The translations under genes were made by a program, and so were the position numbers. A stretch of 64,000 bases of DNA from Candidatus Borrarchaeum weybense (lineage in GTDB: Archaea > Asgardarchaeota > Sifarchaeia > Borrarchaeales > Borrarchaeaceae), in contig JAHQJS010000007.1 in assembly GCA_019057385.1 (NCBI GenBank), forward strand, positions 128,001 to 192,000, given 5' to 3'. The notes beneath the pieces are model-generated. The model saw only the letters and a list, made by a program, of their open reading frames with translations, made no database searches and was not told where the DNA came from. Shown one piece after another: positions 6,109-25,159 of this stretch. Positions within the stretch are counted from its first letter, which is position 1; each line of letters starts with the position of its first letter.

Positions 6109-6927
6109 TTAAAATGTGGCATCTAAAGCCATAGTAGCTACTCCTAACTCAAGCGAGTCGTGAATTAAATTTTTACTTGTGAGTTTTTTGAGTGCCTTAC
6201 TAGTTAGACCTAGCGGGATCCCAGGAGCAACAACAAATGTATCTTCTTTTATCATATCTTCAGAAATAATGTCTGGCACTGGAGTTGCATCAACTATCAA
6301 ATTTGCATACCGCAATCCTTCTTTGATTGAGTGAACAATATGAACGCGATCTTTAAATTTACGTTTGGCATATCCAATCTTTACTTTATCAATATCATAT
6401 AGAACCACATTAGCGCATCTATCAAGTAATTCAATCGTAGCAGCTTGTCCTACGGGACCATATCCTATGATAAAAACAGTTTTACTTTTTATTCCCTTCG
6501 CTGCGAGATCCAATGCTGCGATATAAGCCTTTCCTGTACATGCAGAATTTTCAGAAACATAACGAGTTCTGAGATTAACTGCAATAAAATGATTATCATC
6601 CGCAGCGAATAAAACGTCTGCTTGTTTAGATATCGCTTCAGCGAAACCTCCAACGTCTTTTTTCTTGGTTATATAGGTATCTAAACCGATATGGGTTAAT
6701 ATGGCTAATATTGCATCAGTAAAACCTAGTATTGTGCCTTTTCCAGCAGTTATAGGTATTATTGCTGCAGTTTTCTTACTTAAAACTGAGGTGATATCAT
6801 TTCTAATGTTAAGAGTATGTTTTGCAATTCCTAATAAAGAATGTTCAGTTTTTTTAATCAGCTCTTGTTCATAGTTTTGTAAATCTATTGGGATATTTTT
6901 CACTTGTTCAGGAGTGAGGCGTGTCAT
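6109..6927 (-). CDS. pylD: 3-methylornithyl-N6-L-lysine dehydrogenase (pyrrolysine synthase)
   Basis: MTRLTP start, PITAGKGTILGF, FAADD, Rossmann GYGPVG, HDSLELGVATM end; directly follows pylC. Confidence 0.9.
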   Translation of the reverse strand: MTRLTPEQVKNIPIDLQNYEQELIKKTEHSLLGIAKHTLNIRNDITSVLSKKTAAIIPITAGKGTILGFTDAILAILTHIGLDTYITKKKDVGGFAEAISKQADVLFAADDNHFIAVNLRTRYVSENSACTGKAYIAALDLAAKGIKSKTVFIIGYGPVGQAATIELLDRCANVVLYDIDKVKIGYAKRKFKDRVHIVHSIKEGLRYANLIVDATPVPDIISEDMIKEDTFVVAPGIPLGLTSKALKKLTSKNLIHDSLELGVATMALDATF

Positions 6928-6953
6928 ATTCTTCCACTTATTTAATTAGGCTT

Positions 6954-8108
6954 TTAGTCAATATAGTTTGTAAGTTTAAACTCTGACATAATTTCACTAA
7001 TTACCGCAACCATTTTCTTTTTTGCCTCTTCTAGAGTTTTATCTCTGACAATTAGTGTTGCAACACGTTTTCCATCAGCATTATTGTTGCTAAAAAAGTT
7101 CGTAATGGCCTCATCTGCACCGAAAAATCCTAGTTTATGTGTTAGATTTTTAGCATCGGTCAGAATATGCTCGCCCTGAACCTTCAATGAATGGTCAACA
7201 ATGCAAACATGTTGATATACGACTCCCTTTTCAAAACCAACTTTATTCGATGACAAAGTGTTTTCAAGGAACATATTTGCAAGTTCCTTGACGATATTTA
7301 TGCCAGTAGAGTGAAAAACGACAGTAGGTGTTTGACTGGGTAATCTTGCATTTATTTCATTAGTTTTTAGTGAGTTAGAAGGAGAAACTATACTTTGCAC
7401 GTCTGTAAGTCCATGCAAGTTAAGACCTTTTGCGATTTTCAAACCAGTTTCGATAAATTTATTCTTAACATGATTCGAAAGAACTGTTGGCGCTGTTACT
7501 CTTTTACATCCATAAGATTCATCAAATTCCAAATCTGTAACTTGAAATGGTATCGAGTTTCCATTCTTTGCAAGAACTTCTAAAGAAACCGCAAGTCCTT
7601 CGACAAATTCTTCCACGATAACTTCGTGATCAATTTGTCTTACTTCATTTATAATGTGAGGTAATTGTGATGGTGTTGACACCTTAAAGATACTAATACT
7701 GCCACTCAAACGAGCAGGTTTTACTATTAGAGGAAATGTTGCATCAGGCCAAGGCTTCGGAACAGCAACGTGTTGACTTGTTAAAAAGTTTTTGGAGCGA
7801 GTCTTATTAGATGTTACCCAAAAAGCGTTAGTGTCTTGTAAAAAGTGTATCAGTCCCTTGCACGTCTTTTCCAGAAAAACAAGCGTTTTCATATTTTCAG
7901 TAGTTGGTAAAACTGCATCTACTGTTTTACAAATCTTCTTAAAGAGATTTTCTTGCTTTATCACGTCAAAAACATAATTTTCATCAACAATAGTAGAGGC
8001 AGGAGTATTAGGTTCTCTATCAATTAATATTGTAGTTATATCCGCCTTTTTCGCAAGATAGGCTGCTTCAAGTCCCTGTAAACGTCCACCTATCAAGGCT
8101 AACCTCAA
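6954..8108 (-). CDS. pylC: 3-methylornithine--L-lysine ligase (ATP-grasp)
   Basis: LIGGRLQGLEAAYLAKKA, EINARLPSQTPTVVFHSTGIN, GEHI, FFGADEAITN. Probable TTG start at 8108 after GAGGT. Confidence 0.92.
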   Translation of the reverse strand: MRLALIGGRLQGLEAAYLAKKADITTILIDREPNTPASTIVDENYVFDVIKQENLFKKICKTVDAVLPTTENMKTLVFLEKTCKGLIHFLQDTNAFWVTSNKTRSKNFLTSQHVAVPKPWPDATFPLIVKPARLSGSISIFKVSTPSQLPHIINEVRQIDHEVIVEEFVEGLAVSLEVLAKNGNSIPFQVTDLEFDESYGCKRVTAPTVLSNHVKNKFIETGLKIAKGLNLHGLTDVQSIVSPSNSLKTNEINARLPSQTPTVVFHSTGINIVKELANMFLENTLSSNKVGFEKGVVYQHVCIVDHSLKVQGEHILTDAKNLTHKLGFFGADEAITNFFSNNNADGKRVATLIVRDKTLEEAKKKMVAVISEIMSEFKLTNYID

Positions 8109-8118
8109 AATGATGACC

Positions 8119-9210
8119 TCAAGATAATCGTTTTCTTTGTTGGATGAATTCAATGTATTGATGTGTAGATGCTAGTTTTAATCCTATACTGTCTAAGTAC
8201 GGTTTAATAGTTTGAATGCTTCTAATTCCTTGATTAATTCCCAGATTAGCTGCTGCTACACCCAATAATCCTGATGTTTTTGGGATGAGGGAGGTGATCA
8301 CATTAGCCCCCACCAATAGACGTAATTGAAGCCCCTTTAAACCATCAATATCGAAAGAAGCCGGAATAAGTTTGTCTGGGCAAATTAAACGCAGAAGTGC
8401 AATAGACTTCATTTCCTCCAAGATTGGAGGCGAGATGTTTTGCTCCATTGGAGTTCCTTGTTGCGGTACAAATCCCATTACACGTACTTGATCTGCTCCA
8501 ATATCCTTGATGGTGAAAAACGAATTAATTCGATCTTCTTCTGATTCTCCTACACCTAGAAGAATACCCTCTTCTATTAATAAGCCCATTTCCTTAGCGA
8601 AAATTTTTGATTTCATCCGTTCGTCATAATCTTGATTAATACGCAATTTTGCGAAAAGTGCACGATTGTGTGTTTCTTGGTAAAGAGCATACCATTCTGC
8701 AATTTCAGCAATTTTCCTTAAAACATGTTTAGGGACAACTCCAGGAGAGACCATTAGTGGTAATTCTGTAGCCTCTTTCACAGTAGATAAAGCAGAAAGC
8801 AAACCTGAATAATTTGGCTTGAAAAAAAGTGGATCCTCTCCTGATGTCATATCGATTAAATGCACACCAGATTCTTTCAATTTTTCTGCTTGACTAATAA
8901 TTTCCTCAGGAGTTTTTCTGTAGCGTAGACATTTAGAATTTAGCTTCCTAAAATAGCAGAAACTGCAAGAATTTTTGCAATATGTTGTAAAATAGATGAA
9001 TCCATAAGCAAATACTTTATTTTCAAAATATCTTACACGGAGTTCATTAGCTGCAGAAAACAATGCAAAGATATCATTTGGATGGCTTGTTTTTAGTAAA
9101 TAAAGAGCATTCCGTCTATTCAGTTCTTCACCGTTTAATACTTCTCTTAAAATTTCATAGATCTTTGGGTCCTTTGGATTTGATTCAAAGGAGCTGAAAA
9201 AACTTTCCAT
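8119..9210 (-). CDS. pylB: Methylornithine synthase (radical SAM lysine mutase)
   Basis: YGFIYFTTYCKNSCSFCYFR (CxxxCxxC), GVHLIDMTSGEDP, YALYQETHN, RVMGFVPQQGTP, LIPASFDIDG, GANVITS. Confidence 0.93.
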   Translation of the reverse strand: MESFFSSFESNPKDPKIYEILREVLNGEELNRRNALYLLKTSHPNDIFALFSAANELRVRYFENKVFAYGFIYFTTYCKNSCSFCYFRKLNSKCLRYRKTPEEIISQAEKLKESGVHLIDMTSGEDPLFFKPNYSGLLSALSTVKEATELPLMVSPGVVPKHVLRKIAEIAEWYALYQETHNRALFAKLRINQDYDERMKSKIFAKEMGLLIEEGILLGVGESEEDRINSFFTIKDIGADQVRVMGFVPQQGTPMEQNISPPILEEMKSIALLRLICPDKLIPASFDIDGLKGLQLRLLVGANVITSLIPKTSGLLGVAAANLGINQGIRSIQTIKPYLDSIGLKLASTHQYIEFIQQRKRLS

Positions 9211-14592: not shown

Positions 14593-15420
14593 CTAGATAT
14601 CTAATCGCCATCCGTTTAAATAACTTAGGCTACGACTAATACGCTTTATATTCTTGAAGTTTTCTTTTAACAGTATCAGTCGTTCAATTCCCACTCCAAT
14701 GCCAGCCCATGGTTCATAAACATTCCAATTTTTGTCTAGTGGATGAGGACCTATGGCGGCAGATGCTATTTCAACTCCTTCAATTGAGACGTCGATTGTT
14801 GTTCCATAAACTAACGAATCAACTTGATGTACCTTATATTCCTTTAACCCAACATTTTTCATAATTAGATCAATCATATAATTGATTCGTTTTTCAGGCT
14901 CTAATATGTCTCCATATTCAACAAGATTCATCATTGTGAATTCTTCAAGATGTTGTTGTCCTGTAGTTTCCTTTCTGAAACATTGTCCGATCTCGAATAT
15001 TTTCACTGGATTTACGAACTTCCTTAGTTGACTCATTAAATGATAAAGACCTGGAGCCAACATGGGACGTAGACAACGTGATTCATCGAGCCAAAAAATT
15101 TGTTTCCAAAGAGAATGGTTCTCTTTAATTTCCATACGTTTGATAAAACTCTTTGAAATGATCACTGGTGTCAATACCTCAACAAATCCTTCAGAAATTG
15201 CAGCTTTTTCAAGTGCTTGCTCAATGCGTTTCAATTCGGGTTTTTTAAACATTAAAAAATTCATTAGGTTTTCACGGTGATATTTTTCAAGTGATGTTGA
15301 TATTTCCTGAAAACGCTTGTCACGTTCGCTTTTCGTTTCAAAACTAAGTAAAAAAAATTCATCAGGAGCATCTAATTCCTTTAACCGTTGTTGTTGTGTT
15401 TTTGAAAAAATAAATGCCAT
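14593..15420 (-). CDS. pylSc: Pyrrolysyl-tRNA synthetase, catalytic (C-terminal) subunit
   Basis: QQQRLKELDA, CLRPMLAPGLY, FEIGQCFRKE, HLEEFTMMNLVE, VYGTTIDV, EIASAAIGPHPLD, GVGIERL, SLSYLNG; ends in TAG. Confidence 0.95.
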   Translation of the reverse strand: MAFIFSKTQQQRLKELDAPDEFFLLSFETKSERDKRFQEISTSLEKYHRENLMNFLMFKKPELKRIEQALEKAAISEGFVEVLTPVIISKSFIKRMEIKENHSLWKQIFWLDESRCLRPMLAPGLYHLMSQLRKFVNPVKIFEIGQCFRKETTGQQHLEEFTMMNLVEYGDILEPEKRINYMIDLIMKNVGLKEYKVHQVDSLVYGTTIDVSIEGVEIASAAIGPHPLDKNWNVYEPWAGIGVGIERLILLKENFKNIKRISRSLSYLNGWRLDI

Positions 15421-15440: not shown

Positions 15441-15725
15441 TTATTTAAATTTGCGTAAGAATTTAGAGAGCCTCCAGTTTTGAATGTCACATGTCTTGCA
15501 AATCTTTCTAGCCCATCCTCTTCTTAACCATCGTGCAGCGCGGCTTCTTCTTGAATTTCGTGTTAAAATAGACTTATTACAAACTGTCTCTATTTTAAGA
15601 TAAGATCCTGCTATTGAAACATTCTTAACTCCATGAAGTGTTCCGCTTCTTGAAGTCCACAATTTGATCTTTTGTAAGAGTTCATTGAGAGGTGGTCGCT
15701 TTTCTCGAGCTAATTTTATAGTCAA
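15441..15725 (-). CDS. pylSn: Pyrrolysyl-tRNA synthetase N-terminal (tRNA-binding) subunit
   Basis: KIKLWTSRSGTLH...C...RNSRRSRAARWLR...CKTC; TTG start with upstream GGAGG. Confidence 0.92.
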   Translation of the reverse strand: MTIKLAREKRPPLNELLQKIKLWTSRSGTLHGVKNVSIAGSYLKIETVCNKSILTRNSRRSRAARWLRRGWARKICKTCDIQNWRLSKFLRKFK

Positions 15726-15743
15726 AAACTTTCCTCCAACAAG

Positions 15744-15811
15744 CGAAGGCCCCGGGAGTTGAACCCGGCTACAAGGGCTTAGGACCCCTGCGGTCTTTCC
15801 GACCGGCCTCC
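15744..15811 (-). tRNA. pylT: tRNA-Pyl (anticodon CUA at 15780-15782); CCA not encoded
   Basis: Reads GGAGGCC GGUC-GGAAA-GACC G CAGGGG-UCCUAAG-CCCUUG UAG CCGGG-UUCAACU-CCCGG GGCCUUC G. It has a 7-bp acceptor stem, small D loop, 6-bp anticodon stem, 3-nt variable loop and G discriminator, and lies just upstream of pylSn. Confidence 0.93.
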
Positions 15812-22922: not shown

Positions 22923-23555
22923 TTGTTTGAAGGTATTAAAAATTCCATAATTGACCTAGATAGAGAAGAGTGCCTTAGATTAGCACAAGAAGCTCTTGAT
23001 GCTGGAATTAATCCACTTGAAGTTATTGAGAATGGACTAAAGAAAGGAATTCAGATTGTTGGAACGAAGTATGAAGAAGGTGAGTTGTTTATAGTAGATT
23101 TGATGATGGCAGCATCAGCTATGAAAGCTGCAGTCGAACTCCTTGAGCCCCATATTTCGTCAGAAATGAAAGAAAAGGCTAGTGCTGGGAAGATTATTAT
23201 TGGAACAGTTGAGGGCGACATTCATGATATAGGAAAGACCATTGTGTCAACCTTATTAGCTGCCAATGGTTTCGAAGTAATCGATTTAGGTTCAGAAGTA
23301 CCTGCCTCAAAATTTATAGAAAAGATCAAGGAACTCAAACCAGATATCGTTGGAATGTCTGCGCTCCTAACAACTACGATGCCAAAAATGCAGGAAGTTA
23401 TTGAAGCGCTCGAAAAAGAAGACTTGCGTGATGCAGTAAAGGTTATGATAGGAGGGGCTCCTGTTACAAAGGAATTTGCAGCAAAGATTGGTGCAGATGG
23501 CTATGCTAAGGATGCGGAAGAAGCTATAAAATGGGCTAAAGAGCTTGCCTCTTAA
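22923..23555 (+). CDS. mtbC: Methylamine-type corrinoid protein
   Basis: B12-binding motif GDIHDIGK...SALLTTTM...KVMIGGAP with four-helix cap; immediately upstream of mtbB. Confidence 0.88.
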   Translation: MFEGIKNSIIDLDREECLRLAQEALDAGINPLEVIENGLKKGIQIVGTKYEEGELFIVDLMMAASAMKAAVELLEPHISSEMKEKASAGKIIIGTVEGDIHDIGKTIVSTLLAANGFEVIDLGSEVPASKFIEKIKELKPDIVGMSALLTTTMPKMQEVIEALEKEDLRDAVKVMIGGAPVTKEFAAKIGADGYAKDAEEAIKWAKELAS

Positions 23556-23755
23556 ATAGCAATAAACTGTAGGTATTTCTCTATTTTTATTTTTCTTTGG
23601 TCGTTTTTCGAAGGATTCTTGCGTTTTTTTAATCACTTATCCAATATTTTCATTTCTCTAGAATTTCAGAGGAAAGATTTTTTAGGGGATTCTGCTTTTA
23701 CAGATGTTTAAAAAATTGATTACAACAGAGAATCTTCTAGCTAGGAGGTCAACTT

Positions 23756-25159
23756 TTGACCGAATTCACAATGCGTACTGGTACGGGAAAACCGTTATAC
23801 ATGTCTAAAGAACAAATTCGGTCAGACCTCGAAGACGGTGCAAACTGGGCTGCAACAAAAGCAAAGATACCAGAACTGTCAGCTAATGAAATAGATCATA
23901 TCCTTGATATACTCGTGAGACCAGGAAGACAAATTGGAGTTGAACAAGGAAAAGAAATTGTTTTAACTACAGATGGCGGCACCACAAGATATACAGGTAT
24001 TTGCAGATACTCAGCTATGCCTGTATCAAGAGAACAGGCTGTAATAATCGGAGAACGTTTCATTGGTTTCGATACGTTTGAAATTGGACACGCTGACTAC
24101 AGTTTTAGACCAGTAAAAACAATTGCTATGGATGAGGCAACAGTAATCGAGAATACAGAACTTAACAGTGTGATTCCAGTATTCTATGGAGCAATGCCTA
24201 ACCTAGGAATCTATTTCCAATCGCAAGGTGGGAAATGGCCATCTCCTACAGATTTCATGAACGAAGGTAAGATTGACGAGGCAAGGGCGGTTCAAGAGTC
24301 TGCTGCAGAAGATATGACTAATGACATAGTCTACGTAGCAAAAATCTTCGCGGAGACTGGTCTTGACGGTCTTGATATAGATACTACTGCTGCTGCTGGT
24401 GATGCAGATTTCTATGGAACTTTAAAAGCCATTGAGATAATAAAAAAGGAAACTAATTTAGCACTAGAGGTTGGCATGGCTGGCGAAAAAGTATTTGGAT
24501 TACATGCAGATCTTAAATATGATGGTGAACGATTAGCAGGTATGTGGCCACATCAACAAAGTTTGATGGTAGAAAAGGCAGGTGGAGATCTCTTTGGTGC
24601 TGTCATTAATACAGACACAGGTAAATCTTGTCCGTGGAATTTAGCCCGTTCGATAACTTTTGTTAAGGAGGTTATGAAGACAGTCAGTATTCCGGTGCAT
24701 CCTAACATGGGAATGGGTGTCGGTGGAATCCCTATGTGCGAAGTTATTCCAATGGATGTCGTCACTCGATCTGGTGTTGCAATGGTAGAACTTACTAATT
24801 GTGATGGCGTATAGGTAGGAACAGGAGACCCTGTTGGTATGGATTTGGCTTATCGGATGAGCATTGGAATGGGAGGCATCGGCACAGCAGGTGATATAGT
24901 AGCACGCCTTCAAATGACTAAGAGAATGAAACTTGACGCTGCCAAGGAATTTGTTGCTAAAAAATTAGGTGTTGATCAATTCACGCTTCACGATACTCTT
25001 CAAATGAGAGATCTTCGCGATGAACTTGAGCTTGGTTCTGTTACCGCACTTCCAGGAAAGGCCAAAGGTATTGAGGCAAAAGCTAGAATCGCAGATCTGT
25101 TTGATATTAAAATCAATTCTGTGGAAAGGCTTAAGAAGAAACTTTCTTTAGACTTTTAG
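23756..25159 (+). CDS. mtbB: Dimethylamine:corrinoid methyltransferase, 467 aa with pyrrolysine at residue 353 (in-frame TAG 24812-24814)
   Basis: ORFs 23756-24814 and 24839-25159 are in one frame. Read-through gives AMVELTNCDGV-O-VGTGDPVGM, matching the MtbB DGxOxGxGDPxG motif. Also DYSFRPVK, FYGAMPNLG, NMGMGVGGIPM. Confidence 0.94.

Follow-up and report, generated by a model that had tools for sequence, protein, structure and literature searches.

In the 64,000-nucleotide stretch of the Candidatus Borrarchaeum weybense genome analysed here (hereafter the window), the minus strand carries a genuine, working-looking tRNA-Pyl gene (pylT) of a Sifarchaeia (Borrarchaeum-like) Asgard archaeon, whose anticodon loop has a cytosine in place of the conserved uridine at position 33 and whose D stem adjoins the acceptor stem without nucleotide 8. 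We consider the chances about even that the full account developed below is correct, namely that of a functional Sifarchaeia pylT with two derived traits, one of which, C33, probably de-tunes amber suppression.

The pylT gene [tRNA-Pyl(CUA)] occupies positions 15744..15811, an assignment supported by ARAGORN, by its fold, by a covarying consensus cloverleaf and by its retention in relatives. ARAGORN called a single tRNA in the entire window [tRNA-Pyl(cta), 15743-15811, minus strand]; the gene itself is 68 nt long and extends from G1 at 15811 to the discriminator base G73 at 15744, with 15743 being a flanking C, and CCA is absent from its sequence. The acceptor stem (15811-15805/15751-15745; 7 bp, including G1:C72 and a G2.U71 wobble) is abutted at its base 7 by the D arm (15792..15804), which consists of a 4-bp stem (GGUC/GACC; 15804-15801/15795-15792) and the 5-nt loop GGAAA, and lacks nucleotide 8. 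A single base after the D stem, G26 (15791), leads into a continuous 6-bp anticodon stem (15790-15785/15777-15772) that presents the loop UCCUAAG (15778..15784), comprising U32 (15784), C33 (15783), the CUA anticodon (15782-15780), A37 (15779) and G38 (15778). This is the loop given in the first-pass annotation, and direct reading of the sequence, ARAGORN and the predicted fold agree on it. The 3-nt variable loop UAG is followed by the T arm (15768-15752), with a 5-bp stem containing G51:C63 and the T loop UUCAACU. The minimum-energy fold is this cloverleaf with U32.G38 additionally closed (-39 kcal/mol, z = -3.2), and an alignment of 56 tRNA-Pyl sequences folds in the same way, 17 of its 21 pairs showing compensatory changes.

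The hallmarks of a tRNA-Pyl are found in pylT almost without exception: a cloverleaf with a CUA anticodon, the bases G73, G1:C72 and G51:C63, a 6-bp anticodon stem, a 3-nt variable loop, a 5-nt D loop, an adjacent pylS gene, and a genome that encodes PylBCD and a TAG-containing methylamine methyltransferase. [quoted passage not shown] No other tRNA with a CUA anticodon is present in the 4.18-Mb genome. None of the Rfam tRNA-clan models reached its threshold on pylT (the best, tRNA-Sec, scored 16.8 bits against a gathering cut-off of 47), so that pipelines built on general tRNA models could miss the gene, which may explain a missing annotation. It had been listed as unannotated at first pass; however, it is not unknown, since a tRNA-Pyl of this lineage is described in the searched part of Sun et al. 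(2021; ISME Commun 1:30, PMC9723677, Fig. 4d/S23). As in that description, pylT lies upstream of pylS, and pylBCD follow at a distance of about 6 kb, beyond an NAD kinase gene. The searched text of the same paper comments only on a 'GC tail' of the tRNA; C33, G38 and the absence of nucleotide 8 do not come up in it (PMC9723677). The 'GC tail' is G73 plus the next genomic base, C; CCA is just not encoded, and none of the archaeal mixed-clade tRNA-Pyl genes in our alignment encodes it.

The gene for the small subunit of pyrrolysyl-tRNA synthetase, pylSn (15441..15725, minus strand), begins 18 nt past the 3' end of the tRNA with a TTG start codon preceded by GGAGGA; its product matches TIGR03912 with 104.3 bits (cut-off 51), in keeping with the PylSn reported in the first-pass annotation. 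The gene for the catalytic subunit, pylSc (14593..15420, minus strand), comes next; its product scores 281 bits on TIGR02367 (cut-off 178), and the closest solved structure is that of the D. hafniense PylSc (3dsq/2zni; E 4e-74). The pyrrolysine synthesis genes pylD (6109-6927), pylC (6954-8153) and pylB (8119-9210) form a block on the minus strand (6109..9210) with profile matches to TIGR03911 (244 bits), TIGR03909 (325 bits) and TIGR03910 (415 bits). When 400 Asgard genomes were searched for PylSc, it was found in two, both of this genus. The gene order pylT-pylSn-pylSc is common to the archaeal relatives, and PylSn is present in all Sifarchaeia-type loci. In a 16-sequence alignment, the Sifarchaeia PylSc proteins have the motif LAPGLY (LAPSLY in one relative) where 12 non-Sifarchaeia homologues have LAPNLY, and GIGVG where the other homologues have GxGFG, with V for F; these are lineage-specific changes in otherwise invariant motifs of the active-site region. 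Of the two pocket motifs singled out at first pass, the G of LAPGLY is thus specific to the lineage, whereas NLVE is ordinary for the PylSc clade.

A client for the tRNA is encoded on the plus strand, where mtbC and mtbB span positions 22923-25159. The dimethylamine methyltransferase gene mtbB (23756..25159) contains an in-frame TAG at codon 353 (24812-24814), the pyrrolysine codon, and the product obtained by reading through it scores 520.6 bits on TIGR02368, compared with a cut-off of 369. A PYLIS_2-like element (24812..24911, plus strand; Rfam RF02509, 38.4 bits against a gathering cut-off of 36) begins at this codon. The stop codon of mtbB is itself a TAG (25157-25159), so that one message needs UAG to be read both ways. 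A genome-wide search for the three canonical methylamine methyltransferase families found this single MtbB with its one TAG as the only TAG-interrupted member, and no MttB homologue was found in the whole genome. Three MtmB homologues located outside of the window (contig C4: 811276-812652, 879948-881294, 944974-946323) have no internal stop codon and appear not to use pyrrolysine.

The unusual loop is not confined to this assembly. It is identical in the congener Ca. Borrarchaeum yapensis and in the metagenome loci L111, L112 and L114. In Logan contigs of four studies, one of them identical to the window and three from relatives with about 93% identity (found in sediment, soil and seawater projects), there are zero differences at 15778-15784, while variants occur at 15793, at 15788 and, in one run, at 15777. 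Where the window has G.U at one anticodon-stem pair, Borrarchaeum has G-C and L111 has A-U; a D-stem pair is either G-C or G.U among the Sifarchaeia-type sequences, and the second D-stem pair of L111 is a G.U. Stem pairs that change in compensation around a fixed loop argue for a structure that is maintained and a loop that is held constant. Four of the five distinct Sifarchaeia-type sequences share the loop; the exception, L113 (1983-2051; PylSc 81% identical), has UUCUAUG, with U33 but also U37. The first-pass annotation had named a U33 in the reads, or CUCUAAA loops in all relatives, as findings that would speak against C33; instead, the contigs of four studies carry C33 and the close relatives have UCCUAAG. 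That C33 reflects an error in sequencing or assembly, or that the gene is a pseudogene in decay, is therefore next to impossible, given that the loop recurs in independent assemblies, in independent metagenome loci and in the Logan contigs, that the stem changes are compensatory, and that the pyl genes and the pyrrolysine-dependent mtbB are intact. C33 and the missing nucleotide 8 are, from this comparison, derived, heritable lineage traits and not errors. One further match, in genome G034 (78% identical), is a tRNA-Arg(CCU)-like sequence and not a tRNA-Pyl.

Few bases in biology are as conserved as U33. To see how tRNA-Pyl behaves at this position, we read 80 of the more than 590 PylSc loci matched from GTDB genomes, together with 26 metagenome loci, and located their tRNA-Pyl genes by means of ARAGORN and a covariance model derived from our alignment. 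Almost all bacterial tRNA-Pyl have the loop CUCUAAA, which accounts for 44 of the 67 ARAGORN tRNA-Pyl calls; C33 is rare against the loops of characterised tRNA-Pyl, as had been pointed out at first pass. An Aminicenantes locus (L056), a Spirochaete locus (L071) and two Eubacteriales loci (L083, L100) have CCCUAAA. Among the archaea, the Sifarchaeia have UCCUAAG, the Bathyarchaeia UUCUAAG and the Nitrososphaerota-type sequences UUCUAGY or CCCUAGC, while two Bathyarchaeia-like contigs (L117, L118) have UCCUAAG. Two Hadarchaeota species (L044:3587-3656, L082:3586-3654) have AACUAGC, with A32 and A33, in loci of normal pylT-pylSn-pylSc synteny, and Methanomethylicus (L084:2277-2346) has CUCUAUC. 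In the last of these and in L113, position 37 is thus a pyrimidine (U37), a purine in nearly all tRNAs.

An 82-row PylSc tree requires seven changes at position 33, with at least six of them forced by well-supported branches, and one C33 clade takes in both Spirochaete and Eubacteriales loci. This pattern, together with the A33 of two Hadarchaeota species, is compatible with long-term function. A base other than U33 was present in 15 of the 82 rows, a count from a sample enriched for relatives of the query and hence not a population frequency. U33 was present in 46 of 56 tRNA-Pyl; as a small control, about 2 Mb of fetched loci contained 29 distinct tRNAs of other kinds, of which 28 had U33. 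Collectively, these data indicate that the loss of U33 recurs in natural tRNA-Pyl, as C33 in archaea and bacteria and as A33 in Hadarchaeota, and that position 33 of this tRNA is unusually changeable across both domains. In the literature searched, we found no mention of natural non-U33 tRNA-Pyl or of variability at this position.

The nearest relatives of the window's tRNA-Pyl are those of the Bathyarchaeia (L032, L033, L115, L116), with 80% identity; hence, pylT is not a new class by sequence. They share with it the pylT-pylSn-pylSc order, U32, G38, a canonical UUC T loop and the lack of an encoded CCA, but differ from it in having U33 and a U8 spacer; the exceptions, L117 and L118, have acquired C33 independently. 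The PylSc tree agrees with this relationship in that the Sifarchaeia clade (support 100) has the Bathyarchaeia group (support 80) as its sister inside a larger clade (support 96). With its separate pylSn and pylSc genes and a PylSc that falls with Bathyarchaeia and other TACK sequences, the pair belongs to the archaeal PylSn+PylSc 'mixed clade' (Bathyarchaeia/Asgard; Guo et al., 2022, PMC9630628). Since U32 and G38 are common to the U33-bearing Bathyarchaeia, G38 is ancestral to the Sifarchaeia-Bathyarchaeia group and, contrary to what the first-pass annotation implied, not special to this genome. By the same comparison, only C33 and the missing nucleotide 8 are derived in the Sifarchaeia tRNA-Pyl. 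A covariance-model sweep of 151 Bathyarchaeia genomes returned two true tRNA-Pyl; the other six matches are apparently tRNA-Cys(GCA) false positives (two were inspected and both were so). In L117 (884-952), which is nearly identical to L118, one C is absent from the 3' strand of the anticodon stem, which leaves the loop with 8 nt or the stem mispaired; this may be an assembly error.

In JdFR-19 and Hydrothermarchaeum, the GGUC/GACC D stem of the tRNA-Pyl recurs with a single spacer base before it, and pylT is one nucleotide shorter than the relatives that share its D stem. The Bathyarchaeia tRNA-Pyl have U8, and among the archaeal relatives only the Sifarchaeia are devoid of nucleotide 8. Loss of this nucleotide is the simplest reading of the spacer-less D stem as judged from these homologues, and the 4-bp stem proposed at first pass is to be preferred on this ground. 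The alternative fold, in which G8 is a spacer and the D stem has 3 bp, was set aside on homology; the first D-stem pair is invariant in the lineage and shows no covariation. The lack of nucleotide 8 has been described as striking in the PylSn-less class, and the M. alvus enzyme uses it as an identity element (PMC10810272). It is shared between pylT and the delta-PylSn Methanomassiliicoccales tRNA-Pyl (classes A/B; Ca. Methanomethylophilus alvus); however, pylT has a 5-nt D loop and a continuous 6-bp anticodon stem without a bulge, and it co-occurs with PylSn, so that a tRNA-Pyl of the Methanomassiliicoccales type is ruled out. A review that puts the Sifarchaeia among the PylSn-less lineages (PMC9499178) fails in this respect for the present genome, while Guo et al. 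(2022; PMC9630628) describe the Asgard systems as PylSn+PylSc.

How, then, might such a tRNA function? The pylT gene is probably co-transcribed with pylSn-pylSc, and its product would be charged by PylSc/PylSn by virtue of the identity elements G73, G1:C72 and G51:C63 (PMC11764691, PMC7609411) and of a compact core (5-nt D loop, 6-bp anticodon stem, 3-nt variable loop), all of which are present. The anticodon loop would lie outside of what PylRS reads, as structures and footprints in which the enzyme makes no contact to it suggest (PMC7609411, PMC1851642). The charged tRNA would then decode the single in-frame UAG of mtbB.

A C at position 33 cannot form the hydrogen bond from N3-H to phosphate-36 that stabilises the U-turn. 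C33, together with a U32.G38 combination capable of pairing, would be expected to make the tRNA a somewhat poorer competitor for the ribosomal A-site against the release factor, in other words a de-tuned suppressor. We hold this specific effect of C33 only tentatively, at a little less than an even chance. Such de-tuning could be tolerated, and perhaps favoured, in a genome with one pyrrolysine codon and about 800 UAG-ending reading frames (799 of 3532 long ORFs, 22.6%; the corresponding share in the searched part of Sun et al. (2021; PMC9723677) is 21%), although the main safeguard is probably still a regulated supply of pyrrolysine. Experimental precedents exist. [quoted passage not shown] Other natural tRNAs without U33 are the yeast tRNA-Leu(GAG) and some eukaryotic initiators with C33, and the Candida tRNA-Ser(CAG) with G33 (PMC13492127, PMC11122139). 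They share with pylT the natural departure from U33, and in the Candida case also a codon with two meanings, but they are different tRNAs from a different domain; G33 lowers decoding efficiency in Candida, while the yeast C33 was measured as nearly neutral with only minor effects (PMC13492127), and effects that range from almost none to reduced decoding give no prediction for pylT.

If weak suppression were an adaptation to frequent TAG stops, as proposed at first pass, TAG usage might be expected to follow position 33. We compared TAG usage in 21 genomes, including that of Ca. B. weybense, from samples of about 100 kb with crude longest-ORF calls (error about +/-4-8%). TAG made up 20-37% of the stops in all nine non-U33 genomes, but also 16-38% in nine of the 12 U33 genomes, among them bacteria with the canonical loop; the only TAG-poor genomes were those of Methanogranum (0-2%) and JdFR-19 (6%). 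Hence, there was no discriminating association between TAG usage and position 33 across the 21 genomes, and five matched contrasts (within the Aminicenantes, the Spirochaetes and the Nitrososphaerota-type sequences, and between Sifarchaeia and Bathyarchaeia and between Hadarchaeota and Methanomethylicus) gave no consistent direction. Back-up stops after TAG were not in excess either: the median distance to the next in-frame stop is 8-9 codons for TAG, TAA and TGA alike. Since TAG-rich genomes with a canonical U33 are common, C33 is not required for living with frequent TAG stops. The proposal of a deliberately weakened suppressor thus stays plausible in view of the one pyrrolysine codon set against some 800 TAG-ending ORFs, but this comparison gives it no support, because TAG-rich genomes have U33 just as often.

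In the strongest alternative, C33 and the loss of nucleotide 8 are near-neutral lineage markers, fixed by drift and tolerated without a meaningful effect on decoding; we see this as a real possibility, though clearly below an even chance. A tRNA that serves very few codons may be under relaxed constraint in its loop, so that odd bases become fixed repeatedly, and in this genome just one pyrrolysine codon was detected. The roughly seven changes at position 33, the wide variation of positions 32, 37 and 38 in the archaeal mixed clade, the presence of U33 in L113, the lack of association with TAG usage, and a yeast C33-to-U33 swap that was almost neutral (PMC13492127) are all in line with drift. 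It is harder to reconcile with the read-through lost by the M. barkeri U33 mutants in E. coli (PMC11467909), with the invariance of the loop across Sifarchaeia variants whose stems change with compensation, and with the extreme uniformity of the bacterial CUCUAAA loops, which speaks for a loop that is normally constrained.

Both traits could alternatively act mainly in recognition by the synthetase and not in decoding, giving the Sifarchaeia PylSc/PylSn a tRNA whose shape or identity is private to this pair. As a common explanation this is improbable. It could hold for nucleotide 8, whose absence reshapes the M. alvus tRNA-Pyl (PMC10810272), and the lineage-specific LAPGLY/LAPSLY and GIGVG motifs of the Sifarchaeia PylSc would fit it. 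For C33 it is unlikely: initial reports counted U33 and A37 among the identity elements of the M. barkeri PylRS (PMC11764691, PMC7609411), but the lack of contact between PylRS and the anticodon loop and the reinterpretation of the U33 effect as a ribosomal one (PMC11467909) stand against it.

A post-transcriptional conversion of C33, by C-to-U editing or modification, would give a mature tRNA with a normal U-turn. Archaeal C-to-U editing of tRNA exists at position 8 (the Methanopyrus enzyme CDAT8), but we judge this reading very improbable: to our knowledge no tRNA editing at position 33 has been described, and bases other than U33, including A33, have arisen independently in unrelated archaea and bacteria, so that a dedicated system would be needed in each lineage.

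With de-tuning as the preferred reading of C33, a broader and more doubtful proposition can be formulated: that selection has repeatedly de-tuned tRNA-Pyl through the loss of U33 (to C or, in Hadarchaeota, to A) in organisms where UAG serves often as a stop and rarely as a sense codon, with the Sifarchaeia as an extreme case in which a tRNA without nucleotide 8 works with a PylSn-containing synthetase. Were this true, positions 32, 33, 37 and 38 would constitute a natural dial for suppressor strength. An intrinsically weak-competing tRNA would also be one possible answer to a question left open in the searched parts of PMC9723677 and PMC9499178, namely how UAG can be read as pyrrolysine in Sifarchaeia when about one fifth of the genes end in it. 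What is new here is the recurrence of non-U33 bases in tRNA-Pyl, the ancestry of G38, and the absence of nucleotide 8 alongside PylSn. Natural working exceptions to U33 help to reveal why tRNAs need the U-turn. In a PylSn-dependent pair, a tRNA devoid of nucleotide 8, an absence that is an identity element of the M. alvus pair, brings known identity features together in a new way, and this combination could behave differently in orthogonality tests; the suggestion made at first pass that the pair is a candidate orthogonal pair for genetic code expansion is a reasonable one.

Further observations outside of the window concern other tRNAs and synthetases. ARAGORN copes poorly with the intron-rich Asgard tRNAs in a genome-wide check of U33 among the host tRNAs. 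In this genome, rated 7% contaminated, a 179-kb contig (C1) carries tight arrays of intron-less tRNA genes (C1:19435-19896 and C1:74513-74748), several of which have non-U33 loops according to ARAGORN (Glu CAUUCAA, Pro CCUGGAA, Thr CCUGUAA); its stop usage differs as well (TGA 40%, TAG 15%), and the contig could be of foreign or viral origin, or a contaminant. In Desulfosporosinus sp. HMP52, two PylSc genes, on contigs C69 and C36 of that genome, score above the family cut-off with 376 and 305 bits.
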